A DNA stretch of 32,900 bases from Chiloscyllium plagiosum (taxonomy: Eukaryota), in the NCBI RefSeq assembly GCF_004010195.1, contig NC_057746.1:1005095-1037994 (forward strand). The letters are read 5' to 3'. Both the position numbers and the translations under genes were made by a program. Shown here piece after piece: positions 320-19,626 of this stretch. Below the pieces are notes generated by a model. It searched no databases and had not been told where the DNA came from. It was given only the letters and a program-made list of their open reading frames with translations. How positions within the stretch are numbered: position 1 is the stretch's first letter; each line of letters begins with the position of its first letter.

Positions 320-1690
320 TTGCCTGTTACTTTCATTGACAACTGAACAAAGATACCCAGATCTCTTTGTATAGCCATACTTCCTGATATATCACCATTT
401 AAATAATACACTGACTTTCTGGTTTTCACACCAAAGTTTTCACACCTTAAACATATCCATGTTATACTGCACTCAGTCAACTTGTCTGGATTCTTCTGAT
501 GCCTCGTTGCATCCTCCTACCAATACACTATCCTATCCAATTTTATGTTGTCAGCAAACTTGGAAAAATTGCATTTGGTTCCCTAATCCAAGTAGTTTAT
601 TTGACCTGATTGAAACCGAAAGGATCCTGAGCGATCTTAGCAGATTGGATGTGGAGAGGATGTTTCACATGTCTCGCATGTTTCCTGATAAAGTGTGTGC
701 GTTTAATGGATGCTGGGCATCAATGATTGACATCTGCTGCCTTGGTAGGTAAGTGCGTGCTCCCGATCGAGTCCTGGTGTTAGATTCTTTTCCGGAGATT
801 CTTACACAATTGATGCAACTGCAAAACATCAACTTCTGTGAACAAGCAAAATTTTATTAAGCACAGTACAGTACAAGCTTTCTGGAGGAACATTTAACAC
901 ACATCGCGCAAGGCTTGCAGGGTTGTGGCAAACGTTTTCCGAACAAAGTAAACATCCTTCCTTTATCCAAAATCTTTACATCACAGGCAGTAATGCCCAC
1001 AAGACAATCTCCAGCCATCCCCCCCACCCAGTCACATGCCACTCAAGACACAATTCAGTGACCATATCATCTCCAGAAACAATGCAATGCAAATCATCCC
1101 CTAAACGGTCAAATATGTTTGCAAATCATTTTCTGTAACTATAGGTGAGTAGTCAAATTCCAACTGTAATGTTCTTATTGATTTCTGAATAGGGGATGAA
1201 AATGTGAATAGCTTTGAATGGCAACGAAATGGCCATGTAAATGGCTCTGAATAATAGGATATTTCTTACAATCTCTCTCTGTAAGTCAAACGTATCCCAC
1301 CCTAGCCTCAGGACATCAAATTTCCTGCAGGTCAGCACAGCAAGTTAACTCTTTAATATCACACTGGGTCCGAGTCAGGGTTGCGGCCTCTCCGGGAGGT
1401 CTTGAAGTTGATTCTGTCAAACCTCCACGTTGTACAGTTTCTTTCAGGTCAGTTGTCATTCCTGGACTGGGTGGGCCTCCTCAGGCTCAGGGCAGGCTTC
1501 ACTGGAGTCAGGTTACTGCTAGATTAGGTATTGTTCCTGAAGTGGTCAGGCTTCAGTTTTAGATATCCCTGAGGTCAAGAAGGTTCGTAGAATCTTTATA
1601 CACAAGTAGATTTAAGAGAACATGCTTACTAACTTTTACACATTTAACATTGACTAAAAGAGAAGAATGATCGGAACAGTCACCACTCGT

Positions 1691-1703
1691 CGCCGCCATC
1701 TTG
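1691..1703 (-). promoter_or_regulatory. YY1 consensus site (CAAGATGGCGGCG on - strand)
   Basis: The + strand reads CGCCGCCATCTTG, an exact match to the YY1 consensus, directly upstream of the CCAAT array. Confidence 0.55.
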
Positions 1704-1730
1704 GATCCTCTTGATTGATTGATCCCTACC

Positions 1731-1930
1731 CCACTCTGATTGGTCAGTCTTTGCCCCACTCTGATTGGTTAGTCTCTGCCCCACTCTGATTGGTTAGCCC
1801 CTGCTCAGTTCCGATTTGCCAATCTCTGCCCCACTCTAATTGGTCAGCCCCTGCCCCGTTCTGATTGGTCAGCCCCTGCCCCGTTCTGATTGGTCAGCCC
1901 CTGCCCTGTTCTGATTGGTCTCCTACACCC
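1731..1930 (+). promoter_or_regulatory. MHC class II beta proximal promoter: 8 x 25-bp tandem repeat of Y-box (inverted CCAAT, NF-Y) units
   Basis: Units start at 1731, 1756, 1781, 1806, 1831, 1856, 1881 and 1906, with approximate consensus CC(A/G)(C/T)TCTGATTGGTCAGCCCCTGCC. Six units have CTGATTGG, one has CTAATTGG, and one is degenerate but contains CCAAT. The array ends 57 nt before the ATG. Confidence 0.85.
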
Positions 1931-1987
1931 CATTTAACGGGCGCCCACTCGTTCGTTCCGGATTTCTGGTTGTTACTGTTTACGGGA

Positions 1988-2090
1988 ATGGATCTGTACA
2001 GAGTGTGTGACCCCCGCTCCCTGTGGATCCGGATCCCCCTCCTCATCGGGACATTTATCCTCCTCAATGGAGGGAGAGACAGCGGAGCTG
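1988..2090 (+). CDS. mhc2b: MHC class II beta exon 1 (signal peptide)
   Basis: [34 protein letters not shown] has a hydrophobic core; donor G|GTGAGT at 2091. Confidence 0.9.
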
Positions 2091-5000
2091 GTGAGTGACC
2101 CCCGGAGACAGCGGGTTTGGTAATTCCCGGAGGGAGGGAAATCCAGCCTCCAGACCGTGTTGTTAAATACTGTTTGTGATCTTTCTCAGGGGCTCACTCC
2201 ACTAATTTCATTGACGGATGTAGGTTTAATATCTCTGGGGCCTGGACCTTTACTCAGCAGTACGTTTATGATAAAGAACTGATCGCGTACTATGACTTTG
2301 ATCAGAAGATATACATCGCTGTGAAAGACTGGATGAAGGGGAATGTGGCCCGATGGAATAAAGAGGAAGCGGCTGGAACATACCAGGAAGGGATCCGAGT
2401 GTGTGAGAACAATGTTCCGATCTACAGCAAAGTGGTGTCCCGGAAAGGTAAGGGGCTTATTGGCGAAGAGATGTCAGTGATCCGGGACAGCATATGCCTC
2501 TTTCCCCCTGTAACGGGAGCTCTCAATCCCTCCCTACTCACAGTACTCACTTACTTATTCCCATTTGTAACGATGGGATTCACAAACAATGTAAACCACT
2601 TAAAAGGAATAGTGCTGTCCTTGAGGAAATGGTGGACCCGTTGATTATTTACTTGATCTTACTCTTAGCAAAGGAAAATGGATTTTTTGTTCATCCGATG
2701 TTTCTGTGCTATCTCATATTTCAGTGTCATTAGTAACTGAAAACCTATCAATTTCTACCTTGAACACACTTGATGACTGAGCTTTTATAATCTCTTTTGT
2801 CATAAGTTGGAAATGTCTTTGCGCCTGTACTAACATTCATTCGTAGTAAATGCTGACACTATGATTATCTTAATTGCTTGCTATATGCCAGCTATCCTTG
2901 AGAGCAAGGACACGAAACCACTTTGGATATCAATTTTGTTTTCAATCTCTGATCATTTTTTAAAAATGCTATACACCTTTTTTCTCCTGTGAAATTATCC
3001 ACTAGCCTACATTACATTTCATCTACCATGCTTGCCTTGAGGCCTCTTTGCATCCACCTTGTTGCTTGTTCCCACCAGATTGTGTAGTCTAAAAAAATTT
3101 TCTTTTTTGGCATTTTAGACATGTTATGGTAAACATCTCTGAAGTGGGATTTGAGCTCAAGTCTTTCTCCTGAAGTAGAGATGCTACCATTGGCTCAAGA
3201 GCAGTGTTTGCAAACTGGGAAATATTGAATGATGTCTATGTCCAAATCATTTGTGAATAGCTGGAGCCTAAGCACTGATCATTACAGTATCCCTCTAGTC
3301 ACAGCCTGCTGATGTTAGAATGACTCGTTTATTCCTACACTCTCTATATTTTCTGCCTGTTAACTAGTCTTCAATCTTTGCTAGTATATTATACCCTGGA
3401 TTTGGATGGATGTGGCTTATGCCCGAAACGTCGATTCTCCTGTTCCTTGGATGCTGCCTGACCTGCTGCGCTTTTCCAGCAACACATTTTCAGCTTTGGA
3501 TGGATGTGGCCATGGGCACTCAGTTGAGCCCCAGCTATACCTGCTATGTTGGCTATGTTGAACAGTCTCTCTTTAGTACCTACACAGACACTGTGCCCCT
3601 ACTCTTCTGCTGCTGTATTGATGACAGCATCAGTGCTGTATCCTGCACCCAAGCTGAACTGGAGCAGTTCAATGACTTTGCCAACAGCTTCCTCAAATTC
3701 ACTTGGTCTATTTCAGACTAATCCCTCCCCTTTTTTCTTGCGTCTTCTTTTCCATCTCTGGTGACAGTCTATGGACAGATGTTTATTGTAAACCCACAGA
3801 CTCCCATTACTACCTGGACTACACCTCCTCCTGACAGTATCCTGAAAGAATTCCATCCCATTTTCCCAATTCCTCTGTATTTGCTCAGACGAGGCGACAT
3901 TACATTCCCAAGCATCCCAGATGTCTACATGTTTTGAATAACATGCTTTTCCCCTCTGTCATCCAGACAGCCTCCCCTGCACCTCCATTCCCTGCTCTAA
4001 ATCCCCCTTGTCCTCACCTATCACCCCACCAGTTTCTGCATCCAATGTATCATCCTTAAACATTTCTACCAACTCCAATTAGACCCCATCACCAAGAACA
4101 TGTTCCTCTCCCCACCTCTCTCCATTTCCACAAGGACTGTTCCCTTTGCGAATCTTGGTTCCTGCCACTTAANNNNNNNNNNNNNNNNNNNNNNNNNNNN
4201 NNNNNNNNNNNNNNNNNNNNNNNNNNNNNNNNNNNNNNNNNNNNNNNNNNNNNNNNNNNNNNNNNNNNNNNNNNNNNNNNNNNNNNNNNNNNNNNNNNNN
4301 NNNNNNNNNNNNNNNNNNNNNNNNNNNNNNNNNNNNNNNNNNNNNNNNNNNNNNNNNNNNNNNNNNNNNNNNNNNNNNNNNNNNNNNNNNNNNNNNNNNN
4401 NNNNNNNNNNNNNNNNNNNNNNNNNNNNNNNNNNNNNNNNNNNNNNNNNNNNNNNNNNNNNNNNNNNNNNNNNNNNNNNNNNNNNNNNNNNNNNNNNNNN
4501 NNNNNNNNNNNNNNNNNNNNNNNNNNNNNNNNNNNNNNNNNNNNNNNNNNNNNNNNNNNNNNNNNNNNNNNNNNNNNNNNNNNNNNNNNNNNNNNNNNNN
4601 NNNNNNNNNNNNNNNNNNNNNNNNNNNNNNNNNNNNNNNNNNNNNNNNNNNNNNNNNNNNNNNNNNNNNNNNNNNNNNNNNNNNNNNNNNNNNNNNNNNN
4701 NNNNNNNNNNNNNNNNNNNNNNNNNNNNNNNNNNNNNNNNNNNNNNNNNNNNNNNNNNNNNNNNNNNNNNNNNNNNNNNNNNNNNNNNNNNNNNNNNNNN
4801 NNNNNNNNNNNNNNNNNNNNNNNNNNNNNNNNNNNNNNNNNNNNNNNNNNNNNNNNNNNNNNNNNNNNNNNNNNNNNNNNNNNNNNNNNNNNNNNNNNNN
4901 NNNNNNNNNNNNNNNNNNNNNNNNNNNNNNNNNNNNNNNNNNNNNNNNNNNNNNNNNNNNNNNNNNNNNNNNNNNNNNNNNNNNNNNNNNNNNNNNNNNN

Positions 5001-8000
5001 NNNNNNNNNNNNNNNNNNNNNNNNNNNNNNNNNNNNNNNNNNNNNNNNNNNNNNNNNNNNNNNNNNNNNNNNNNNNNNNNNNNATTGGGGAGACAGGCCG
5101 CCTACTTGCGGAACATTTCAGAGAACACCTCTGGGACACCCGCACCAACCAACCCAACCGCCCCGTGGCTGAACACTTTAACTCCCCCTCCCACTCCAGC
5201 CTATCACCTTCACCTTAACCTCCTTTCACCTATCACATTCCCAACGTCCCTTTCCCCCAAGTCCCTCCTCCCTACCTTTTATCTTAGCCTGCTTGGCACA
5301 CCTTCCTCATTCCTGAAGAAGGGCTTACGCCCGAAACGTCAATTCTCCTGCTCCTTGGATGCTGCCTGACCTGCTGCGCTTTTCCAGCAACACATTTTTC
5401 AGCTCAGATCTCCAGCAACTGCAGTCCTCACTTTCTCCCTGTACATCAGTGAAACCAAATGTAAACTCAAGGCTCATTTTGCCAATGGGCTGACCTGACC
5501 TCCCAGTCACTGCCCATTTTAATTTCCCTTCCCACTTCCCCTCCGACATGACATCCTCTGCCTCCTCCATTGCTACAGTGGATTGGACCACAATTTGGAG
5601 GAACAATACCTCATCTTCTACCTGGGCAGCCTACAACCTGGACGACTCAACATGGAGTTGTCTGATTTCAAATAACCTCTCTTCCCATCCCTGACTCCTT
5701 TCTAGCCCATCCCAATCTCTTCCATTCATCTGACTGACCCTTCCTTCCAGCTCCCAAACGTACATGAAACATTGACTTCTCCACCTCCGCTGTCTGGCTT
5801 GCTGTGTTTTACCAGCCTCCTGCTTGTCTACCGTGTCTCCCTCCTTTAACAGTGAGACTACATTTACAATCTTTTCATTTGCAGTTACCACTACACAATT
5901 AACTTGTTGAAAGATGATCACTGACCAACTTGTCTTGGAAATATATCGCTGTTCCTTTACTGTCTCTGTCAAAATCCTAGAATTCCCTTCCTAATGGCAT
6001 TGTGGGTCAACCCACAGGAAGTGGACTTCAGTGGTCAAGAAGGCAACTCACCGTGCAACTAGGGATGCACAATAAAGGCTGGCCAGCCAGTGATGCCCAC
6101 GTCCCACAAAATGAATACATTTTTAAACTATTGTATCCTCTGGCTCTATAACCATCTTTCTTCACCTAGGATTAAGGTCATTGGATCTTGGAGATTTCCA
6201 ATGTAATTTTGTTGTTTTCGGATCTTAATTATTTCAGAAAATTTATCTTCCTCTGAAGACAGACAAGTACTTTGTGTGACATTTCTCTATTTCCTGTTAA
6301 ATTTCCTGTACGTCTATAGTGAATCCACATTTTTGTTCTTTACAAACCTACTGACGTTTCTATTGTATATTTTTGTTCTCGCTATTTTGCATTCACATTT
6401 TATTCTTTATCAATTTCTTCACCCTCCCTATGCTGAATTCTAACATTGTCCAATCCTCAGATTTGCAGTTTACTTGGCAACTTCATAAATTTTCCACTTT
6501 GTAATACTATTTTCAACTTCCCTTATTAGCAATGGCTCTTTACCTGGGTAATTCGGGCAGACAAATGCTTTTCGCAAACCCAGCATTATACTTTAGCCAT
6601 ATTTATCTACTATCAGATATTTTAATGTATTTTCCAATTTATCATATCTGACTTCCTCTATCTCCAGCTGAAAATGTGTCACTGGAAAAGTGCAGCAGGT
6701 CAGGCAGCATCCAAGGAGCAGGGGAATCTACGTTTCGGGCATGAGCCCTTCAGGAATGAGGAAAGTGTGCCAAGCGGGCTAAGATAAAAGGTAGGGAGGA
6801 GGGACTTGGGGGAGGGGCGTTGGAAATGCGATTGGTGGAAGGAGGTTAAGGTGAGGGTGATAGGCCAGAGTGAGGGTGGGCGCGGAGAGGTCAGGAAGAA
6901 GATTGCACGTTAGGAAGGTGGTGCTGAGTTTGAGGGTTGGGAATGAGACAAGATGGGGTGAGGGGAAGTGAGGAAGCTGGAGAAATCTGAGTTCATCACT
7001 TGTGGTTGGAGGGTTCCAAGACGGAAGATGAGGCGCTCTTCCTCCAGCCGTNNNNNNNNNNNNNNNNNNNNNNNNNNNNNNNNNNNNNNNNNNNNNNNNN
7101 NNNNNNNNNNNNNNNNNNNNNNNNNNNNNNNNNNNNNNNNNNNNNNNNNNNNNNNNNNNNNNNNNNNNNNNNNNNNNNNNNNNNNNNNNNNNNNNNNNNN
7201 NNNNNNNNNNNNNNNNNNNNNNNNNNNNNNNNNNNNNNNNNNNNNNNNNNNNNNNNNNNNNNNNNNNNNNNNNNNNNNNNNNNNNNNNNNNNNNNNNNNN
7301 NNNNNNNNNNNNNNNNNNNNNNNNNNNNNNNNNNNNNNNNNNNNNNNNNNNNNNNNNNNNNNNNNNNNNNNNNNNNNNNNNNNNNNNNNNNNNNNNNNNN
7401 NNNNNNNNNNNNNNNNNNNNNNNNNNNNNNNNNNNNNNNNNNNNNNNNNNNNNNNNNNNNNNNNNNNNNNNNNNNNNNNNNNNNNNNNNNNNNNNNNNNN
7501 NNNNNNNNNNNNNNNNNNNNNNNNNNNNNNNNNNNNNNNNNNNNNNNNNNNNNNNNNNNNNNNNNNNNNNNNNNNNNNNNNNNNNNNNNNNNNNNNNNNN
7601 NNNNNNNNNNNNNNNNNNNNNNNNNNNNNNNNNNNNNNNNNNNNNNNNNNNNNNNNNNNNNNNNNNNNNNNNNNNNGCCTGCTTGGCACACTTTCCTCAT
7701 TCCTGAAGAAGGGCTCATGCCCGAAACGTCGATTCTCCTGCTCCTTGGATGCTGCCTGACCTGCTGGGCTTTTCCAGCAACACATATTTTCAGCTCTGAT
7801 CTCCAGCATCTACAGTCCTCACTTTTTCTCCTTCCTCTATCTCCATAATTGTCCTTATTTAGATTTAAGATCTTAATTTCAGATTCCACTAACATTTTTA
7901 CAAGTTTAGTGAAAGATTGTATGGCCACTATTCTCAAGTCTTTTACAAGATGATTACTAGGCATTTCTCATTGCATAATACTAAATCTAAAATAGTGAGT

Positions 8001-11000
8001 GCCTTGTATTTCATGTGTTAAATGCTGGATTAGAAAGTATGTCCCAATTTACTGGAGCTAAATAGGTGTCAGCATAAAATTCATTGAGTCACGTGAATGA
8101 TGAAACTGGCAAATGTACTGCAATGCCTCCAAATGAAGATCTAAGTAGGAAATGTGTTCCAAATGGTGCAAAGGTGGATATAGGAGATAGTGGGGTTGGT
8201 AAGTGAGAGGGGACAGATCCAAAGACACATCACTGATTTTGGAACTTTTGATAGCTTAATGGAATGCTGGTCTCTTGCATTATCTTGGAGGAATAATCAC
8301 TTCCTTCGCAATTGTCAAAATTTTGGAACACCTTTCAAAGGATACCAGCGCTGGAGATGCTACCTTTAACAGACATCCACATCCAGTTGTGAGCGGAGGT
8401 AAGATTAAAGTACTGAGCAATCCTCAGCACCACACTTGAATGCTTACTCTCTTTGGAGAGAGTGCAGTACACAGAACTTCGTTTTGTGCTTAAGACTTAA
8501 CAGTAATTAATTTTTTAAAATTTTTTAAAAATATAGCTGAAATAGTGATTTAATTGAATTAAGGTGTTACGGTAATGGTCTATTTTTGCTAGTTGGAGTT
8601 TAGGACTAGGGACTATTTTTAAGAAAAACTAGTTTTTCAAGAGTAAAAGTCTGGAAACATTTCTATGTAAGTGACAACTTGGAACTAATTTAACAGAATA
8701 TAAAACATAGAACAGCACAGTACAGGTCCTTGCTTCTTTGTGCTGACCTTTTTATACTACTGTAAGATCAAACTAACCTAAATACCCTTCAATTTACTAT
8801 CCTCCGTGTGCCTATCCAAGAGTCACTTAAATGTCCTAATGTATCTGACTCTACTACCATCGCTGGCAATGCATTCCCCATTGCCACACACATCATTTAC
8901 TGCTTCCGCTGCACCCGATGTGGCCTCCTCTATATTGGGGAGACAGGCCGCCTACTTGTAGAACATTTCAGAGAATACATCTGGGACACCCGCACCAACC
9001 AACCCAACCACCCCGTGGCTCAACTCCCCCTCCCACTCCACCAAGGACATGTAAAGAAACGATCTCTGACATCTCCATTAAACCTTCCTCCAATCACCTT
9101 AAAATTATGCCCTCTTGTGAGAGCCATTTCTGCCCTGGGGAAAAAGTCCGGCTATTCACTCTATCTGTGCCTCTCATTATCTTGTACACTTCTATCAAGT
9201 CGCCTCCCATCCCTATTTGCTCCAATGAGAAAAGGCTTAACTCCTTCAACCTTAAGACATGCCCAAGTCCAGGCAGCATCCTGGTAAATCTCCTGTGCAC
9301 CCTTTCTGAAGCTTCCACATCCATTCTGAGGCAATCAGAATTGAACACAATATTCCATGTGTGGTCTAACCAGGGCTGTCTCGATCTACAGCATAACCTC
9401 ATGGCTCTTAAACTCAGTGCCCCTGCTAACAAAAACCAGCACCATATGCTTCCTTAACTACCCTCTCAACTTGGATGGCAACTTTGAGGGATCTATGGAC
9501 ATGGACCCCAAAATCCCTCTGTGTTCCTCCACACTGTCAAGAATCCTGCCTTTAACCCTATATTCTGCATTCAAAGCTAACAATCTAAAATTAATCACTT
9601 CACACTTTTTTTTTCAGGCTGAACTCTATCTGCCACTGTATCAGCCCAGTTCTGCATCCGTCAATGTCTTGTTGCAACCTTCAACAGCCCTCCACACTAT
9701 CCACCACTCCTCTGACCTGCATGCCATTGACAAACATATTAACCCACTCTCCACTTCTTCATCTAGGTCGTTTTTTAAAAATCACAAGAGATCCCTGCAG
9801 TATACCACTAGTCACTGATCTCCAGGCTGAATACTTTCCGTCCACTACCATCCTCTGTCTTCTATGGGCCAGCCAATTCTGTATCCAGACAGATAGCTCT
9901 CCCTGTATCCCATGCCTCATTACTTTCTAAATGAGCCTACCATGGGAACCTTATCAATTGTTAATCACTTCACAATTTATTACTGATTTTTTTCCCAAAA
10001 GGTTTGAGATGGGGCAAAACAGACCAAAATTTTGGATTTGGATGAACCATATCCTATTGCCTCAGGTGACTAAATGGCCTGCTATTGTTCATGTGCTCTT
10101 ATCCACATCTAATACCTCTGAGGACTGTCTGAACCTGACCCTTTAAGGAACTATTTCCTTGATGTTCCCCATAATTCTTGGTGTAACATTGCTGCTAGAG
10201 ATTTCTGGGCTTGTTTGTTGTAGTTGAAGTACATAACGGACTTTTGAGGTTTCTGCGGCCCAAGGAGCTGATGCTTTTCAGCCATCTTGCGTGTTTTGCT
10301 ATTATGTAGTGCAAGCATCCAGCTCTTGATGGTTAAAAGGTTACAACAGATGTGTTGAACAGACTTATTGATCACTGCTTCAGTGTTCACCAAGTCCTTC
10401 CTCCAGTTTACACTGGAATACATAATTAAAAAAGAAAGGTATTGGAATGAAACTAAAACAGTAAGCCAAGATAAATTTAATGGGAGCTACTGGACTAATT
10501 GCATCCAATAATTGGTGCTACAGTGCTGATTAGACTTGTCATTAAAATTAATGTTATGTGGTAGCCTTGCTTTTTGTGGTTTTTGTAAAGCCAACTTAAA
10601 TTGTTTAATAGCATCATGATAAAAGACCACTTTTTTTTTAAAGTCACAAACAGGAATTTGTCTTCTGGGCTGAATTTCTTAATTAGAATGAAGACTGGGA
10701 CTTGTAGTCAATCTGAGGGTATTCAGGAACTGAGCAAACAGCAATGATGACTGGGGGGAAAATTGAGAAACAAATGCAAGATGACAAAAACACTATTCGA
10801 CGACTCACTGCTTTCTTTCTAAAGTTGATTTTATTCTGTTCCAGTTGAACCAACAGTCACTATCCGACCTAAAGCCTCTCAACATTCCACACAGTCAGCT
10901 TTGCTCTCGTGTCATGTCACTGGATTTTACCCTCCTGAGATTGATGTCACGTGGCTGAAAAATGGAGCACCAATTCCTGATGGTGTCATCAACACTGTCC

Positions 11001-14000
11001 TGTTATCAGATGGTGACTGGACCTATCAGGTGGAGGATCTCCTCCAGTACCAGCCAGTGTCTGGGGATAAATACACCTGTCGTGTGGAACACAGCAGCCT
11101 GAGGGGGCCCAGGAGTGTGGATTGGGGTAAGAAGTGAATCTCAACTAGTACTGCTTGAATGAGTTTCAGGAATTTATACACGTTTGTTTTGTCTCTAGTC
11201 AAAAATCTACTGTTCAATCACATCTTATGTTCTGATACATTCAAAGTACAGCTAGCTCAGCTGGCTGGATTGCTGGTTTGCAGAGCAGTCTGATGCCATC
11301 AGTGTGGATTAATTCCAACCACTGATTTGGGGTTACTATGAAGGACACACTTTCTCAGCCTCTTTTCCTTGCCTGAGGTCTGGGGGCCCTCGGGTTAAAT
11401 CAGCACCAGTTGCTTCTCTGAGAGCAGCCCCTTTGGCCTGGCAAGACTATGGTGACACAACTTGAATTCTTGATCACTGACCTTCCATGTCATCCAGTTT
11501 TGCTCTTCCAGTTAATAACTTGCCTCTGTACTTTAATGTCTAAATGTTTTAAGAGGACTATCTTCCCTCAGTGCTATAGCCAAATTAGTTCTGTACACTG
11601 GGAAACCCTGTAGGAAATAAGTGTATTGTAAAATGCATGATCACAGACTCAAAGTTTGGGAGGAGATTTGTAGCTTGGGTGCTCGTTGTTGTGGTTCCGT
11701 TCGCCGAGCTGGGAATTTGTGTTGCAGACGTTTCATCCCCTGTCTAGGTGACATCCTCAGTGCTTGGGAGCCTCCTGTGAAGTGCTTCTGTGATGTTTCC
11801 TCCAGCATTTATAGTGGTTGACAGACTGGGAAAATAGTCAAATCCCATTAAAGTCAGCATGGAAAGGCAACTCCTGCTCACAAATTAGTGGAAATTTTGA
11901 GTGTAGAAATGAGGATGCTGTGTATTTGGATTATCAGAATGTTTGAGATCCCTTGTTAGTGGGTAAGGTTAAAGCACATGGGATAAAGGGTAATCTATTG
12001 GTATCAATTGTGAATTGATTACTAACAGAACAGGAAGAAAAGTCACTCTTCCAAATGAGTGACTATTGGAATACCACAAGGATCAGTGCTTAGACCCAAA
12101 CTATTCAGATGTATATAAATGATATGGTGAGGGATCTGAATGCAACAGTTTAATCTAAGCATAGAGGATTAGTTGACTGACAGAAAGCAGTGGGGATAAA
12201 TCAGTAACTGGTGGTGTGCCTCAGGGATCAGTGGGACCGCAGTTAGTCACAATTTATATATGACTTGGAGTTTGGTATCATATGTGTCCAAGTTTGCAGA
12301 TGACAGAGTTCAAAGTGTACAGAGGACAAACTTTGCAGAGGAGCATAATACTTTGAATGGGCAAAGGTCTGGCAGATGGAATACAATATTAATGTGACAT
12401 CTCTTTTGGTAGAAGTAACAGTAAAAAGAATTATGACTTGAATAGTAAAAAAATTGTAATTATGCTGCTGTGCAGAGGGCGCTGGGTGTCCTTGTACATG
12501 AATCACAGAAGATTGGTCTGCAGGTACAACAGGAATTTTGCCCTTCATTGCTAAAGGGGATTGAGTTTAAAAGCAGGGAGGTTGTTGCCGCTATACAGGG
12601 TGCTAGTGAGGCCACACCTGGAGTACTGTGTGCAGTTTTGGTCTCCTTACTTGAGAAAGGATATACTGGACTGGAGGAGGGTGTAGAGAAAGTTCATAAG
12701 GTTGATTCTGGAATTGAGGGGGTTGGATTATGAGTAGACTGGGATTATATTCATTGGAATTCAGAAGAATGAGGGGGATCTTATAGAAACATAAAATTAG
12801 AAGGGAACAGATAAGAGACATGGACAGTACTTTTCCACTGGTGGGTGAAACTAGGACAAGAGAGTGGAGCCTCAAAATTAAGGGGAGCAGACTTTGGACT
12901 GAATTGAGAAGGAACGTTTTCACCAGAGGGTTGTGAGTCCATGAATTCCTTACCCACTGAAGTAGTTGACATACTTCAGTAAATGTTTTTAAAGTAAGAT
13001 TTTTTTAACAATGAATTAAGGTATACAGAGGGCAGTGAAGTGGAGCTGAGGCCACAGGATGATCTTGAATGGTGGAGCAAGCTTGAAGGGCCAGATGACT
13101 TACTCTTGCTTCATGTTAATGTTCAAGAGAAAGGTAAATATTTTAAAATCAAGGTATCAAATGGTATGGGGAGAAGTGGGAATATACCACTTGTGATAGT
13201 GGATCAGCAATGATATTAAATGGTGGAGCAGGCTCAAAGGGCTGAATGTTTGTTTCTGTGACCTACTTGCCATCTGGAGCCTTGTGCAGATTGAGAATTC
13301 AATTCCCTCAGACTTTACTCCTCCCTTCAAATAAGCTTGTAATTAAACTCCAAATTAAGTTATTTCTATTTGTCTCTTTACTCTATGGATATTTTGACCA
13401 CTTCACTGCTCTCTTTTCATTGTATTGAGCCTGTTTAAATCTGGTTTTAGTCTCATAGGTATCTCCTCATGTGCCTTTGTTGCGACTTTCTCCCATATTC
13501 TGTAAAGCCTAAGTAAAATCTCCTCTGTTCGTGTTAAACTTCTTTTCCTGATTACTCTTATGCAGTTTGAAAATTTAAAAAGAAATGTGAACCTTAAATT
13601 CACTTCTCTCTGCTCGTGGACATTTCTGGCATTGATATTTTTTGTCCAAGTTCATCTTCCTTTGTCTTCTGCTTTTAGCCACTTTTTAATTTGCTTTTGC
13701 ATGTATATCTACTTTGCATTTACTTCACTGTGTTGCTTTGCTTCGTTGTGTAATTCCTTATCCTTTTCCAGTTTGGCTTGTTGCCATCCTCGTGGAAAGA
13801 TTAAATCTTTTCATTCCATTGGACATTAGCACCAGTTCTGGGGAAAACAAACTCCAAAGGTTTCCCAATCTTCCTATTTTATTTGTAGCCTACTTTTTAA
13901 AGACACTTTCCCAACTGCTTTCTTACAATTTAGTCCCTTTCTGTTTCACCAGTTCAATATGTATTATTGCCCTTTGACCATGTTCTTTTTCCTCCCTGAG

Positions 14001-17000
14001 AGTCAAAGGACTTGAGCTTGATGCAAAAGTTGATGCTCAACATTCTTGCGAAACCTTCTATTGCTGAATTGCAAATAGACTCCTCCCCTCATCACACCAG
14101 TTTCTTTTAAATGTCACTGAATTGCTCCCTAGCCCTGACCAGTGAACTTTCACAGGTGCTTTGCTATCCGTTCTCTCTGGACTGACAACCCTCAAACATT
14201 TGTTCTGGAAATCTGTCTCCAGTTTCCCTTTGCTTCAGATGTCTCAAGTATCTTACACAGCTTTTGACTCCATTAACATCTCCTCTATTCTCTCAATCTA
14301 AAATAAGCCAGAACCTTTCATTCTTCTGCATTCTGACAAGGAATGAATTATTGATAAGGTAAACATCAGTTCCAATTAAATTACTCTACTTTTTCATCCT
14401 CTATTTCCATATTGTTAACATTGTCCTCCAGTAACAAGATCTCAATAGTCTGTTAATGGCTGAGATTACTGCATGAGGAATTTCTAAATGCTCACTAATC
14501 CATATATTTTACGCCATCTATTTTACATCGTTCCAGTCCAGGCCACTTTTTTTTAATGGATGTAAAATAGAAATTCTGGCAGTATTTGTGGAGAGATAAC
14601 AGTTAACATTTTGGGTGCAGTTCTGGAGAAGGGTCATGAGCCAAAATGTTAGCTCTGCTTTCTCTTCACAGATGCTGCCAGACTTGAGTTTTTTTTCCAG
14701 CAATGTTTTTGACTTCCAGCATTCACAGTTCTTTAGGTTTTTCACTTTATTGGATTGTTTAAGTAATCTTTGTATCCAAATTTCAGTTTTCCAACTGTCT
14801 GAGATCTAGAATTCTTCATGTTGAATCTCAATTTCACAAGGAATTGTGGATCTGTCTCTTGTTAAAATGTAGTCCCATTTTGTTAAGACCCCATAACCTT
14901 GCTAGAATTAGTCTTGTGGGAGTGGAATGAGGACAAGCTGCTGGAAATCTAGCAGTGAGCAAAATACACATTTCCAGTACTTTTTTTCCTGTGCTCATTG
15001 CTTACAGTTTGATTTTTGTTCATCCACCTCCTTGCTGAAGCCACTGTTCCACAATGGCCTGAGGAGCTGAGAAAAATCAGTCAAATATGAAGACTTAACC
15101 AGGGAATGGATTCTAGTTTGTAGCTGCAAGTTCAGTATCACAGTTGAACATTTAGTGTTGCTTTGACACCTGGATTGTTTTATTTGGACAGAAGTACAGA
15201 ACGTCTCTCTATCAGAGAGACACAAGATCATTGTTGGAGCCCTGTTCTTTGGGATTGGACTGATCATCTTACTAGCTGGAGTGATAATGAGATTAAAGAG
15301 TGCTAAAGGTGAGACTTTTCCTGTATCTTGAGTGTGGGACATTGCTGCCTTTGGTTGTTTGGGGCTGAGTCTCTACACAACAATATTAGCAGTTTAATAC
15401 ACCATGCTGCACTCAATGTGATATTTACTGTGTGCATCCTTTATCATCTATTGATCAGTGCAGTGAGCATAGTGTTGTGGCTGTACAGGGCATTGGCTAG
15501 GCCACTCTTGGAAAACTGCATTTAATTCAGCCTCCCTGCTGTAGGAATGTTGTTCAACTTGAAAGGGTTGAGAAGATTTGAGGAGGTTGCCAGAATTGGA
15601 ACATTTAGGTATACAGAGGCTGAATAGGCTGGGGCTGTTTTCCCTGAAGTGTCAGAGGCTGAGGGGTGACATTGTATAGGTTTACAATATCATGAGTGGT
15701 GCGAATTGGGTGAACAGCCAAGGTCTCTTTCCGAGGGAGGGGGAGTCTAAAACTAGAGAGCATAAGTTTATGGTGGGGGGAAAGATATGAAAGGGACCCA
15801 AGGGGCAACTTTTTTTCATGCAGAGGGTGGTACATGTATGGACTGAGCTGGCAGACAAAGTAGTGGAGGCTGGTACAATTACAACATCTAAAAGGCATTT
15901 AAATGGGTACATGAATAGGAGGGGTTTAGAGGGATATGGGCCAAATGGCACTAGATTGATTGAGGATATCTGGTCGGCATGGAGGGGTTGGACCGAAGGA
16001 TCTGTTTCCATGCTGTATAACTCCATGTCTCCATAAAGCTTACTCCATTTAAGATAGCTGCTGAACTTGGGAAATGCCAAGAGGTAACATCATTACCACT
16101 AGTACGGCAAAGTTCTCACTGAGGTTTTGAGGTGGCCTTGTTATTGGTGTAATGCTTTTTAAAGTTGCTTTAGACAGGAAATATGGCTGGGAATTTTTAA
16201 CATTCCAGATCAAGAAATCTTTTCTGGCACAGTGGACAAATTCATCAAACTTAAATATTTTAGGTGGGATATTTCCAGGGCCTTCAAGTGCAATGGGCTG
16301 AATGTATAATGGACTATAATCTAGGAAACATTAATGTCATCCAGTTCCAATTACATTTACCTTAATGTGAAGCAGTTGCAAATCCTGTTTGCTAGCCATG
16401 TCATACTATCCAAATGTTCAATTTATCTCTAGGACACTTAACCAGGGTAACTATAAATCCATCTAGCTGACCTTATTTTAACTGATTCTTCCTTTAGAAT
16501 AAAAACAACTCAGTCTTTAAATACATTTTCTCTCAAGACATTGCAAAACCTTATTTTTAGTGCTGAACAGAGACCTCTGAGGAAATGTGTTCTGAAATGT
16601 GGTTACTGTTGTACTGTAGCATAACTTTAAACAGTTCTGAGGAAGGGTCACTTGACCTGAAATGTTATCCGAGTCTGATGGATGGCATGGTAACAGACCC
16701 TTTAGTCCAACTCATCCATAGTGACCACATATCCTAAATTAACAGTCCCATTTGACCCATATCCCTCTAAACTGTTCCTATTCATATACCCATCCAGATG
16801 CCTTTTTAAAATGTTATAACTGTACCAGCTTCACCATTTCCTCTGGCTCCTAGTTCTGGACTCTTTCTCCCCACCCCCCCAAAAAAAAGGAAAAAGCTTT
16901 TTTATTCTATTTACCCTATCTATGACCCTCATGATTTTATAAACCTCTAAGGTCTTCCCTCAGCCTCCGACGCTCCAGGGAAAACTGCCCCAGCCTATTT

Positions 17001-19561
17001 GGCTCCTCCCTATAGCTCAAATCCTCCAACCCTGGCCACATCCTTGCAAATCTTCTCTGAACCCTTTCAGGTTTCACAGCTTCCTTCCTTCCTATAAGAG
17101 GGAGACTAGAATTGCACACAATATTCCAACAGTGGCCTAAAGCCTATTTGGCTCCTCCCTTTAGCTCAAATCCTCCAACCCTGGCCACATCCTTGTAAAT
17201 CTTCTCTGAACCCTTTCAGGTTTCACAGCTTCCTTCCTTCCTATAAGAGGGAGACTAGAATTGCACACAATATTCCAACAGTGGCCTAACCAATGTCCTG
17301 TACAGCCACATGACCTCCCAACTCTGATACTCAATGGTCTGACCAATAAGAGACCATACCAAATGCTGCCTTCTCTATCCTATCTACTGGTAACTTCACT
17401 TTCAAGGAGCCAAGAACCTGCACTCCAACAACACTCCCTAGGACCTTACCATTTAGTGTATAAGTCTTGCTGAGATTTGATTTCCCAAAATGCAGCACCT
17501 CGCATTTATCTAGATTAAACTCCATCTGCCACTTCTCAGCCCATTGACCCATCTGATCAAGATCCCATTGTACTGAGGTAAGCTTTGCTGTCCACCACAC
17601 CACCAATTTTCATGTCATCTATAAACTTACTAACTATACCTCCAATGTTCACATCCTAATCATTTATATAAATAATGAAAAGCAGTGGACCCAGTGCTGG
17701 TCCTGTGACACACCACTGATCACTGGCCCTTCAGTCTGAAAAGCAACTCTCCACCACCACCCTCTGTCTTCTATCTTTGAGTCCGTTTTATATCCAAATG
17801 GCTAATTTTCCCTGTATTCCACGTGATCTATCTTTGCTAACGAGTCTACCAGGAGGAATCTTATCAAACTGATTTCTTGTCACAGATGCTGAACCTGCTG
17901 AGCTTTGCCACCAACTTGTGTTTTTGTTTGATTTACAGCAACCACTGTTTTGATTTTAACTTAACTAACATCAGAACAGATTCTGTTTAAGGGGTAAGGT
18001 TTCATCATGACAGATAAGACTAGATGATCTTCAAACTAGTGTTAGGACATTCCTTGCCATCTGTCTGAGGACCGACTGAGCTTAAATTTCAACATCTCCT
18101 CTAATCTACTGTAAGATGCAGGCTAGCATTCCAGTGGAGTACCAGACTATTTTATATTCAAGGTGTGGGGCTTGCAACCCTAACCTTTTTAACTTGGGTA
18201 ACCTAACCATGTTGATTTCTCTTCCAGCTATCCTGGACTCCAGCAATCATGGTCCACGTAAGTATATCAGCCAAGAATAAATTTTGTGGGAGGGATGCAC
18301 TGAGGGTTCTGTTCTGACAAATAGTGTGACTGTAGTATTCCACTTCTAGAATTAACCCTGACAGTAAAATTCCTTCTGTATTGCAACTGTATTGTCCCCA
18401 TCCCAGGTTCATTTCACATTAACCTTCACTGCTAGTCAGTGTAACTTGTGCACTAAGGTTTTAAATAAAAAACCTCATTTCCTCATTTAAATAAAAAATC
18501 TCAGTCTCATTAGCAGGCATCTTTAGTTTGGGAGCCTCTGGAATTTGCTGATAGTCAGGAGGATTGTTAGGATACAGCAGGATATAGATCAGTTGGAGGC
18601 AAGGGGAGAAAAATGGCAGATGGAATTTAAGCTGGACAAATGTGGGTGATGCATTTTGAAAAGGTAAGTACAGGTGGAAATTATACAGTGAATAACAGAA
18701 TCCTTAGGAGTATTGATAGGCAGCGGGATCTGGGTGTGCAGGTCCACAGATCACTGAAGGTGGCTGTGCAGATACTTAAACTAATAAAGGCCAATGGCAT
18801 GCTTCTCTTCATTAGAGGGGGCACTGAGTATAAAGAGACAAGTTTTGCTGCAGCTTTATAGAATTTGGTTAGGCCACACTTGGAATATTGTGTACAGTTC
18901 TGGCCGTCACAGACAAAGATGTTGATGCTTTGGAGAAGGCATAGAAGAGGTTTACCCAAAGAGTATGGGGGATTTTAGTGATGGATAGACTGGGTTTGTT
19001 TTCACTGGAACCCAGGAGGTTGAGGGGCAACCTGATAGAAGTTTAAGATTGTAAACAGCATCGTTAGTGGAAAGTATAAGACTTTTTTCCTCAGGGTGGA
19101 GGGGTCAATTACCAGGGACACTGGTTCAAGGTGCAAGAGGGAGATGTTTACAAGAGATGAGGCTATAAAGTGCTGGCAAAGGAGGTGGTGGAGGCAGACA
19201 CAGTAGCAGCATTTAAGAAGCACCTGGATGAATACATGAATAGGAAGGGAACAGAGGAATATGCATGTGAACACTTTCTTAGTATGGAAGGGCAAAATGT
19301 GTTGGCACAGGCTTGGAGGGGTCAAAGGGCCTGTTCCTATGCTCTATTCTTTGTTCAAAGTATGATACAATCCATCACATGAATGTTGTAGAACTCCACT
19401 GCACCCAATTTGTACAAAAACTGGCATTGCTATCCCATACTGAGCATAATGGTAAACTGGTTCAGTGCAGTTTGTTGGGTTAATGGTGTATGTCGAGATT
19501 GTCTTGTATTTTCTAACTCTGGTAATTTGTTTCAGGTCTGATGGGTCCAGCTGTCAGCTAA
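1988..19561 (+). CDS. mhc2b: MHC class II beta chain gene, 6 exons, join(1988..2090,2190..2447,10845..11126,15192..15308,18228..18257,19536..19561), 271 aa
   Basis: Manual splicing gives an uninterrupted 816-nt ORF with GT-AG phase-1 introns and the domain-per-exon layout of class II beta genes. It strongly resembles nurse-shark class II beta as I recall it (GAHS mature start, [13 protein letters not shown], tail [17 protein letters not shown]). Confidence 0.95.
2190..2447 (+). CDS. mhc2b: MHC class II beta exon 2 (beta1 peptide-binding domain)
   Basis: Acceptor CTTTCTCAG|, donor G|GTAAGG. Translation [86 protein letters not shown] shows the Cys pair, the NIS sequon after the first Cys, the WN motif and CxxN. 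Confidence 0.95.
3417..3494 (+). mobile_element. Truncated Penelope terminal repeat (family A) with 16-bp TSD
   Basis: TTATGCCCGAAACGTCGATTCTCCTG...CAGC is flanked by TTTGGATGGATGTGGC at 3401-3416 and 3495-3510. Confidence 0.85.
4173..5083. other. Assembly gap (N run)
   Basis: Run of n characters. Confidence 1.
5084..5440 (+). mobile_element. Young Penelope-like element 3' part (GIY-YIG fragment plus terminal repeat, family A)
   Basis: [37 protein letters not shown], then a terminal repeat shared with 7677-7830 and 20201-20326. Confidence 0.85.
5310..5343 (+). ncRNA. Minimal type I hammerhead ribozyme motif (PLE family A)
   Basis: CTGAAGA-A-GGGC(TTAC)GCCC-GAAAC-GTC; helix I is weak in this copy. 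Confidence 0.55.
5960..6120 (+). mobile_element. LINE 3' end (second family, CR1/L2 group)
   Basis: AAAATCCTAGAATTCCCTTCCTAATGGCATTGTGG...AAGAAGGCAACTCACC...AATAAAGGCTGGCCAGCCAG; homologous to 22270-22335, 23980-24345 and 27690-28420 (-). Confidence 0.65.
7052..7676. other. Assembly gap (N run)
   Basis: Run of n characters. Confidence 1.
7701..7732 (+). ncRNA. Minimal type I hammerhead ribozyme motif (PLE family A)
   Basis: TC-CTGAAGA-A-GGGC(TCAT)GCCC-GAAAC-GTC-GA. Confidence 0.6.
8695..9955 (-). mobile_element. CR1-clade LINE, 5'-truncated RT fragment
   Basis: The - strand translates to [14 protein letters not shown]...[11 protein letters not shown]...[12 protein letters not shown]; paralogous to 28675-29880. 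Confidence 0.9.
8878..9049 (+). mobile_element. Penelope GIY-YIG endonuclease fragment inserted in the CR1
   Basis: [47 protein letters not shown] shows the IY...CxxC..YIGET motif; near-identical to 5084-5195. Confidence 0.88.
10845..11126 (+). CDS. mhc2b: MHC class II beta exon 3 (beta2 Ig C1 domain)
   Basis: Acceptor TTCTGTTCCAG|, donor G|GTAAGA, 282 nt. Translation [94 protein letters not shown] carries C..TGFYP, W.KNG, GDWTYQ and YTCRVEH. Confidence 0.97.
11250..11460 (+). mobile_element. tRNA-derived SINE, decayed
   Basis: A-box-like TAGCTCAGCTGG head, and a body (GAAGGAC...CTGAGG...GGTTAAA...GAGAGCAGCCC) homologous to the split copy at 26230-27165. Confidence 0.65.
11650..11820 (-). 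mobile_element. Penelope-like element 3' terminus (family B) with 7-bp TSD
   Basis: Matches 26280-26450; flanked by ACAGACT at 11643-11649 and 11821-11827. Confidence 0.85.
11724..11763 (-). ncRNA. Minimal type I hammerhead ribozyme motif (PLE family B)
   Basis: The - strand reads GCA-CTGAGGA-T-GTCACCT(AGAC)AGGGGAT-GAAAC-GTC-TGC, with helix I GCA/TGC. Confidence 0.65.
11850..13260 (+). mobile_element. Cluster of decayed CR1-clade LINE RT fragments
   Basis: Motif-encoding stretches for [27 protein letters not shown] and LERV..KF.RL, with many frameshifts; two 3' tails (about 13120 and 13260). Confidence 0.85.
14565..14740. mobile_element. Old Penelope terminal repeat remnant with short inverted 5' part
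   Basis: TTCTGGAGAAGGGTCATGAGCCAAAATGTTAGCTCTG...CACAGATGCTGCCAGACTTG (degenerate hammerhead core), preceded by its partial reverse complement. Confidence 0.6.
15192..15308 (+). CDS. mhc2b: MHC class II beta exon 4 (connecting peptide, transmembrane, stop-transfer)
   Basis: Acceptor TTTGGACAG|, donor G|GTGAGA; [39 protein letters not shown]. Confidence 0.95.
15467..16030 (+). mobile_element. CR1-clade LINE (HER1-like) 3' fragment
   Basis: [13 protein letters not shown]...[40 protein letters not shown] plus 3' tail. Confidence 0.9.
16670..17868 (-). mobile_element. CR1-clade LINE RT fragment
   Basis: The - strand gives [32 protein letters not shown] and [19 protein letters not shown]. Confidence 0.9.
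16992..17289. repeat. 149-bp direct tandem duplication inside the CR1
   Basis: 16992-17140 and 17141-17289 differ at only two positions that I can see. Confidence 0.9.
18228..18257 (+). CDS. mhc2b: MHC class II beta exon 5 (30-nt cytoplasmic micro-exon)
   Basis: Strong sites TTTCTCTTCCAG| and C|GTAAGT; encodes (A)ILDSSNHGP(R) in frame between exons 4 and 6. Confidence 0.9.
18545..19355 (+). mobile_element. CR1-clade LINE RT 3' fragment
   Basis: [56 protein letters not shown]. Confidence 0.88.
19536..19561 (+). CDS. mhc2b: MHC class II beta exon 6 coding part (C-terminus and stop)
   Basis: Acceptor TTTGTTTCAG|; (R)LMGPAVS* with TAA at 19559-19561. Confidence 0.9.
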
Positions 19562-19594: not shown

Positions 19595-19626
19595 AATAAA
19601 TGACTTGATTAAATGACAGAATTAAA
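19595..19626 (+). terminator. Candidate polyadenylation signals of the class II beta gene
   Basis: AATAAA at 19595-19600, ATTAAA at 19608-19613 and 19621-19626, another ATTAAA at 19865-19870. The site actually used cannot be determined from sequence. Confidence 0.45.

Follow-up and report, generated by a model that had tools for sequence, protein, structure and literature searches.

The promoter module described for MHC class II genes is S-X1-X2-Y, the module of RFX, CREB, NF-Y and CIITA, and in the passages cited its Y box lies upstream of the gene in the ATTGG orientation (PMC4381081, PMC1802633, PMC2278383). Short tandem duplications within class II proximal promoters are known from cetacean DQA and DRA, where the cited part of the report gives repeats of 11-22 bp in two or three copies that leave S-X-Y intact (PMC6155461). 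The human ABO gene has a CBF/NF-Y minisatellite about 3.8 kb upstream, built of 43-bp units in one or four copies, for which NF-Y binding has been shown and whose copy number is linked to the allele, as described in the cited sections of PMC7187371. Structural reasoning, involving an S-shaped path, has placed the minimum distance between two adjacent NF-Y trimers at 24 bp; that distance is typical of same-orientation CCAAT boxes in LTR12 repeats, and 31 bp is preferred by tandem CCAAT boxes in human promoters (PMC4982600, in the sections cited). CCAAT and YY1 sites are also enriched in bidirectional promoters, according to the cited part of PMC4730256.

Here we describe the region upstream of an MHC class II beta gene in a stretch of 32,900 nucleotides from Chiloscyllium plagiosum (contig NC_057746.1, positions 1,005,095 to 1,037,994), referred to below as the window. 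As in the S-X1-X2-Y module, Y boxes in the ATTGG orientation lie upstream of the gene, the last starting 77 bp before the ATG, but there are seven rather than one, and no match to the X1, X2 or S consensus used here is found at the constrained spacing. As at ABO, CCAAT units stand in tandem near a polymorphic surface-antigen gene, whereas the shark array is proximal and consists of eight 25-bp copies with putative NF-Y sites. Same-orientation CCAAT boxes near the 24-bp minimum recall LTR12, but the array is single-copy, belongs to no dispersed LTR family and has a period of 25 bp, not one of 24, 31 or 41 bp (PMC4982600). Like TATA-less bidirectional promoters, the region has two transcribed flanks (here less than 300 bp apart), CCAAT boxes, a YY1-type motif and no TATA box; unlike those promoters in the cited account, it is built from a minisatellite, has a weak CpG-island character and would pair a class II gene with a likely non-coding RNA that ends in a solo LTR (PMC4730256).

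Searches of the open-access literature turned up no account of a class II promoter from any shark, nor of the way in which class II transcription is controlled in cartilaginous fish. The word "promoter" is absent from three shark class II papers (PMC8010645, PMC9992475, PMC10751288), and a review of fish MHC mentions conserved elements for teleosts only in the part cited (PMC6523485). An NF-Y minisatellite is a known type of element, but one that serves a class II gene as its proximal promoter and lacks an X match appears to be undescribed.

An intact class II beta gene

Six exons on the plus strand, separated by GT-AG introns, encode an open 271-residue protein that is identical to XP_043533830.1 of C. 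plagiosum. Exon 1 (1988..2090) encodes the leader and exon 2 (2190..2447) the beta-1 domain (PF00969, E 0.006, below the curated cut-off), and their GT..AG joint at 2089-2189 was found spliced in sequencing runs X2 and X3, whose type is unrecorded and which we take to be RNA from this joint. Exon 3 (10845..11126) encodes the beta-2 domain, a C1-set Ig domain (PF07654, E 4e-24), and the exon 2-3 junction is present in X2. The connecting piece and transmembrane segment are encoded by exon 4 (15192..15308), the cytoplasmic part by exon 5 (18228..18257), and the last coding part with the stop codon by exon 6 (19536..19561), with an AATAAA following near 19595. The gene is an intact shark MHC class II beta gene, with leader, beta-1, beta-2, transmembrane segment and tail, and it is spliced in RNA. 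The identical protein, together with a strong Pfam C1-set match and a weak class II beta domain match, bears out the class II beta assignment made in the initial annotation. None of the open reading frames tested in the window matched a head-to-head class II alpha gene, and metagenome scans for relatives of the class II beta protein gave 154 pattern matches, none of which was confirmed.

Two features of the introns were also observed. Intron 4 contains a 149-bp tandem duplication that is 98% identical (16992-17289), and intron 2 has two runs of N (4173-5083 and 7052-7676), each lying between similar repeat sequence.

In a tree of eight beta-1 sequences, which has a midpoint root only and a long catshark branch, the window gene groups with proteins of C. 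punctatum, Hemiscyllium, the whale shark and a catshark (support 99/96), and two C. plagiosum alleles stand with a whale-shark protein of a second lineage on the other side. The group of the window gene has a common one-residue gap near the end of beta-1, and Gaigher et al. described a one-codon gap at the end of exon 2 for the catshark locus IIbeta-C, whose primers, translated by hand from the cited part of that paper, match the catshark protein P0003 (PMC9992475). Because the beta-1 grouping, the shared gap and the primer match agree, the window gene likely belongs to the lineage of catshark IIbeta-C, orthology being judged here from these features rather than from proof of synteny. IIbeta-C transcripts were reported in three of seven tissue sets, namely pancreas, immature ovary and, with one read, mature testis, and in the sections cited the expression of this locus is lower and found in fewer tissues than that of the paralogue loci (PMC9992475).

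A single-copy CCAAT-box minisatellite

Tandem Repeats Finder (TRF) reported an array of period 25 at 1724-1920, with 7.9 copies and 80% matches, and an in-register cut delimits eight units of 25 bp at 1724..1923, a feature to which no strand is assigned. Seven of the units carry CT(G/A)ATTGG on the plus strand, with starts at 1736, 1761, 1786, 1836, 1861, 1886 and 1911 (1736..1918), and 64 unique bases separate the end of the array from the ATG at 1988. The eight units and seven boxes of the initial annotation were recovered, its coordinates being shifted by 7 bases. Every unit combines a C-rich stretch that resembles a GC or GT box with a Y/CCAAT box. On the minus strand the CCAAT sites read ACCAATCAG in six of the eight units and ACCAATTAG in one, and the view that the unit boxes would serve as good CCAAT sites is supported. 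Unit 4, CCGATTTG, is the one without CT(G/A)ATTGG; its CCAAT is reversed and stands at 1819-1823 of the plus strand. The ER-stress element has the form CCAAT-N9-CCACG, and none was seen by eye in any unit.

Eight CCAAT/ATTGG pentamers fall within 180 bp, and the maximum in window-sized Markov simulations was six (200/200 simulations). The ATTGG core departs from the consensus at 1 of 40 sites compared with 27 of 160 elsewhere in the units (Fisher p 0.02), a test in which the units are not independent and the array had been picked for this same core. Two palindromes were seen as well: the consensus core CTGA-TTGG-TCAG (1736-1747 and each unit) is an imperfect one, and unit 4 has its own, GATT-TGCC-AATC, which creates the reversed CCAAT.

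Since units 6 and 7 are identical and unit 4 departs from the other units at 7-11 positions, the array likely grew in several steps. A 43-bp exact repeat is the mark of a recent duplication. A possible decayed ninth unit, weak but in register, lies on the plus strand at 1699..1723 (11/25 to consensus, with TTGATTGA at 1711). No further copies of the 25-bp unit were found elsewhere in the window, and a metagenome scan with a two-box pattern returned no matches. The 25-bp period corresponds to 2.38 helical turns, or a rotation of about 137 degrees, so that neighbouring NF-Y sites would indeed be rotated relative to each other as had been proposed, but would not sit on fully opposite faces of the helix. 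Because the period is one base above the 24-bp minimum, it would allow abutting NF-Y occupancy.

We compared region 661-2700 with reads of 4 of the 24 listed sequencing runs at 85% likeness. None of the listed runs is annotated as RNA, which speaks neither for nor against transcription. X1 is a DNA run, of which 84% was read and which is possibly the source of the assembly itself. An X1 contig equals 1691-1868 with no differences and an X3 contig equals 1877-2031 with three; as these contigs agree with the assembly, an assembly artefact is ruled out. At 85% likeness, the X1 depth in the array bins was 7 and 5.35, compared with 8-9 in the unique flanks, supporting a single-copy, locus-specific array, as the initial annotation had supposed. 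At this likeness the depth also rules out a dispersed repeat or LTR U3, the nearby LTR reaching 16,000. The contig ends at 1868 (X1) and 1877 (X3) are the exact edges of repeated 31-mers from units 6 and 7. Because the contigs break there, at least two such identical units are likely present in both samples, and the copy number, which the initial annotation had proposed as a possible polymorphic rheostat of expression, is unreadable from the contigs.

X box search around the Y boxes

Y boxes of the CTGATTGG type are present upstream of the gene, seven in number, and we asked what stands at the X position of each. Human class II genes have an X-Y spacing of 17-18 bp (PMC5437515) and NLRC5 targets one of 20-22 bp (PMC4374748), the box boundaries differing between these two sources. 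CIITA regulation in human cells needs both spacing and motif quality (PMC4381081), and both are said to matter in the passages cited from PMC1802633 and PMC2278383. Using a mammalian X1 consensus of 12 informative positions, which may not fit the shark, we found a best score of at most 6/12 at spacers of 16-25 bp from all eight unit positions. In background sequence, 9% of single placements score this high, as do 62% of best-of-10 placements. The best scores in 600-2200 (9/12) lie in intron 1, in the LTR or at 1479, none of them adjoining a Y box, and an 8/12 stretch with its start at 1707 stops 15 bp short of the first Y box. At the expected places, no X2/CRE beside X1 and no S box upstream matched within one mismatch, these being short motifs and weak as tests, and by the same kind of motif the nearest CRE-like site is at 1570. 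The absence of an evident X box, noted when the stretch was first read, therefore holds for canonical spacing from any Y box, where no X1 rose above chance with the mammalian consensus.

With a 19-bp spacer, the CTGAT of the previous unit falls at the 3' end of X1 and its GGTCAG at the place of X2, giving 6/12 in 6 of 7 such positions. This placement could mean that the array arose by slippage inside an X-Y module, the match being not above chance. Searches by eye can miss the module: of 12 class II genes of bats inspected in this way, 5 showed no S-X-Y, and 2 of these 5 are pseudogenes (PMC5437515).

Transcription on both sides of the array

The array lies between two transcribed flanks. X2 contigs equal 834-1186 and 1174-1659 with no differences, at depths of 25 and 35, and the second crosses from the LTR into single-copy DNA. 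X2 depth was 91 in exon 2, 0 in intron 2, 25-35 upstream and zero at 1681-2020, where holes between contigs do not prove a gap. In X3 the depth was 419-704 upstream and 378 in exon 2 compared with a background of 9-22 in intron and flank, and an X3 contig equals 1581-1709 with no differences. These data show that both flanks of the array are transcribed in X2 and X3. A variant X3 contig over 1161-1522, with 15 differences and 6 gaps at a depth of 508, was not seen in X1 and likely represents another haplotype. The X3 variant was also seen over 1161-1675, where it is about 94% identical and has a joint that skips about 1594-1674 with an AG at its minus-strand edge; the joint may be a splice, or a deletion in another haplotype.

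The upstream transcript (834..1709, 5' end at or above 1709) is likely divergent, polyadenylated and non-coding, and is assigned to the minus strand by inference. One X2 contig halts at 834, leaving 5 letters unaligned, 8 raw X21 reads show T-tract loose ends at 834/837, and the minus strand has an AATAAA at 853-858. These observations are most simply read as an RNA of about 880 bases on the minus strand, spanning the stretch between about 1710 and the LTR's poly(A) site, its direction being read from the 3' end; the 8 poly(A) reads may derive from other copies of the high-copy LTR, and the contigs show neither strand nor starts. No pile-up of read starts marking a start site was seen in the runs over 661-2700. 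A 46-codon minus-strand open reading frame had no Pfam or database homologue, which is a weak test, and Rfam returned one match to the upstream RNA, far below threshold.

The LTR-like element occupies 586 bp on the minus strand (778..1363), with TG...CA ends, a 4-bp direct repeat (CTGG) on both sides and the AATAAA noted above, an anatomy by which it would be a solo LTR. Its depth in X1 ranged from about 800 to 16,000 against 8-9, or about 100 to 2,000 times single-copy, and loose ends were seen at 788-795 and at 1360-1363. The element is the likely source of the upstream RNA's poly(A) site. Between the LTR and the array, a 12-base motif that we take to be of YY1 type (1692..1703, minus strand, GCCGCCATCTTG on the plus strand) overlaps a minus-strand ATG at 1699 and is oriented away from the class II gene; CGCCATCTT/AAGATGGCG occurs only there in the whole window. 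Farther out, about 1.4 kb above the ATG, GAAACCGAAA at 612-621, presumably ISRE-like, sits in an apparent old repeat fragment.

A candidate two-way promoter

The region has the traits of a bidirectional promoter, being TATA-less (no TATAWAW in 600-2200), with CCAAT boxes and the YY1-type motif. Across 1601-2200 the GC content is 45-57% and the CpG observed/expected ratio is 0.42-0.62 compared with 0.22 window-wide, which is not a clear CpG island. The array fills most of the roughly 280 bases between the upstream RNA and the class II ATG. We propose, at odds only slightly better than even (a probability of about 0.55), that it would form the core of a TATA-less, NF-Y-centred two-way promoter for this minor class II beta gene and for a non-coding RNA that is likely divergent. 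As the array likely also serves the divergent transcript, towards which the YY1-type motif is turned, its role need not be specific to class II. In the mechanism that we envisage, NF-Y would bind the array boxes, Sp/KLF-type factors would assist at the C-rich stretches of the units, and YY1 would act beside the minus-strand start. The right-hand units may set initiation of the class II gene and the left-hand units that of the divergent RNA, which would terminate at the poly(A) site of the solo LTR. Local slippage likely built the array itself out of one or two CCAAT boxes of an ancestor, and basal expression would be less dependent on RFX and CIITA than that of an S-X-Y promoter.

Other readings of the array were weighed against this proposal. 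The locus may still be a CIITA/RFX target, in which one Y box works together with a divergent shark X box or with a distal S-Y enhancer, the remaining units are surplus and the array may stem from slippage of an X-Y module. The CTGAT and GGTCAG of the previous unit at the X1 end and X2 place (19-bp spacer), the 8/12 stretch at 1707 some 15 bp before the first Y box, and the five bat genes (two of them pseudogenes) out of 12 in which S-X-Y was missed by eye (PMC5437515) would all fit such a history. A score of 6/12 is nevertheless met in 9% of single and 62% of best-of-10 placements, the 8/12 site lies outside both the 17-18 bp (PMC5437515) and the 20-22 bp (PMC4374748) spacings, and spacing and motif quality are both required in human cells in the cited part of PMC4381081, so we regard continued CIITA/RFX control through the array as unlikely. 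We are similarly doubtful of a near-neutral expansion, in which one or two CCAAT boxes suffice and the rest reflects recent, lineage-limited slippage. The identity of units 6 and 7, a 43-bp exact repeat that marks a recent duplication, and the decay of unit 4 are what such slippage would leave, and whether the NF-Y minisatellite of ABO affects expression is a matter of dispute in the cited sections of PMC7187371, but the ATTGG core is better kept than the rest of the unit (1/40 against 27/160 off consensus, p 0.02, with units not independent and the core picked beforehand) and the array leaves hardly any of the gap between the two transcribed flanks unfilled.

Together with the YY1-type motif, the array could also be the promoter end of an old retroelement that was inserted head-to-head with the gene and has since been co-opted. 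Tandem CCAAT boxes at about 24 bp are the LTR12 pattern in the passages cited (PMC4982600), and the motif, like the transcript, is directed away from the gene. We consider this origin very improbable, as X1 shows single-copy depth for both the array and 1409-1680 at 85% likeness, neither LTR ends nor a second copy were found in the window, the actual LTR stops at 1363, 360 bp off, and the adjacent 46-codon open reading frame has no protein homologue, the last being a weak point. The two-way, NF-Y-centred promoter is the reading that we prefer.

The spacer and the paralogue

The unique spacer and 5' UTR region (1924..1987, plus strand) differs from the paralogue upstream of 1983. It contains TGTTTAC, which we take to be Forkhead-like, and on the minus strand AGTAAC, presumably an RFX half-site-like sequence. 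Reads of the paralogue's exon 1 depart from the window sequence at 1983 and 2090, so the paralogue has the same leader with another 5' UTR. The leader of the window gene is 100% identical in amino acids to that of this C. plagiosum paralogue, whereas identity in beta-1 is 51% and divergence of the UTR sets in 5 bases above the ATG; the leader is near-identical in the whale-shark paralogue pair too. Identity of the leader against divergent beta-1 and UTR suggests gene conversion, probably limited to the exon.

X21 is a single-cell run, of which 2% was read, and its 50 reads on the region are too few to rank expression. None of them fell on exon 2 of the window gene, and the exon 1 reads continue into the paralogue. 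In X21 the paralogue also has a 5' loose end about 18 bases above 1983, with adaptor-like letters, which suggests a short UTR for the paralogue. A search with the in-frame translation of the promoter end returned five shark class II proteins, through the leader, and two unrelated repeat proteins. The in-frame codons at 1958-1987 (FWLLLFTG) resemble a predicted N-terminal extension of the whale-shark protein P0002 (FWVLVSGSSG), the sole protein with such a weak likeness, which gives a weak hint that the UTR may be common to orthologues.

Cartilaginous fish are the oldest group with an MHC. Because the two C. plagiosum class II beta paralogues have an identical leader peptide and diverge from 5 bases above the ATG, promoter logic can be compared cleanly between them within one genome. 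It is a tentative and rather unlikely extension of our proposal that the whole IIbeta-C lineage, an old one that takes in the catshark and carpet-shark orthologues, may have left the RFX/CIITA circuit and rely on an NF-Y array that is conserved, varies in copy number and also serves the divergent RNA. If the array depends on RFX and CIITA, it would be an ordinary promoter minisatellite. If it is free of them, this would explain the differing expression of the IIbeta-C lineage. Should that lineage truly have left RFX/CIITA control, it would hold a class II gene that presents peptides in a tissue pattern of its own, and its pairing with the paralogue would allow the origin of CIITA control over class II to be dated by a natural test.
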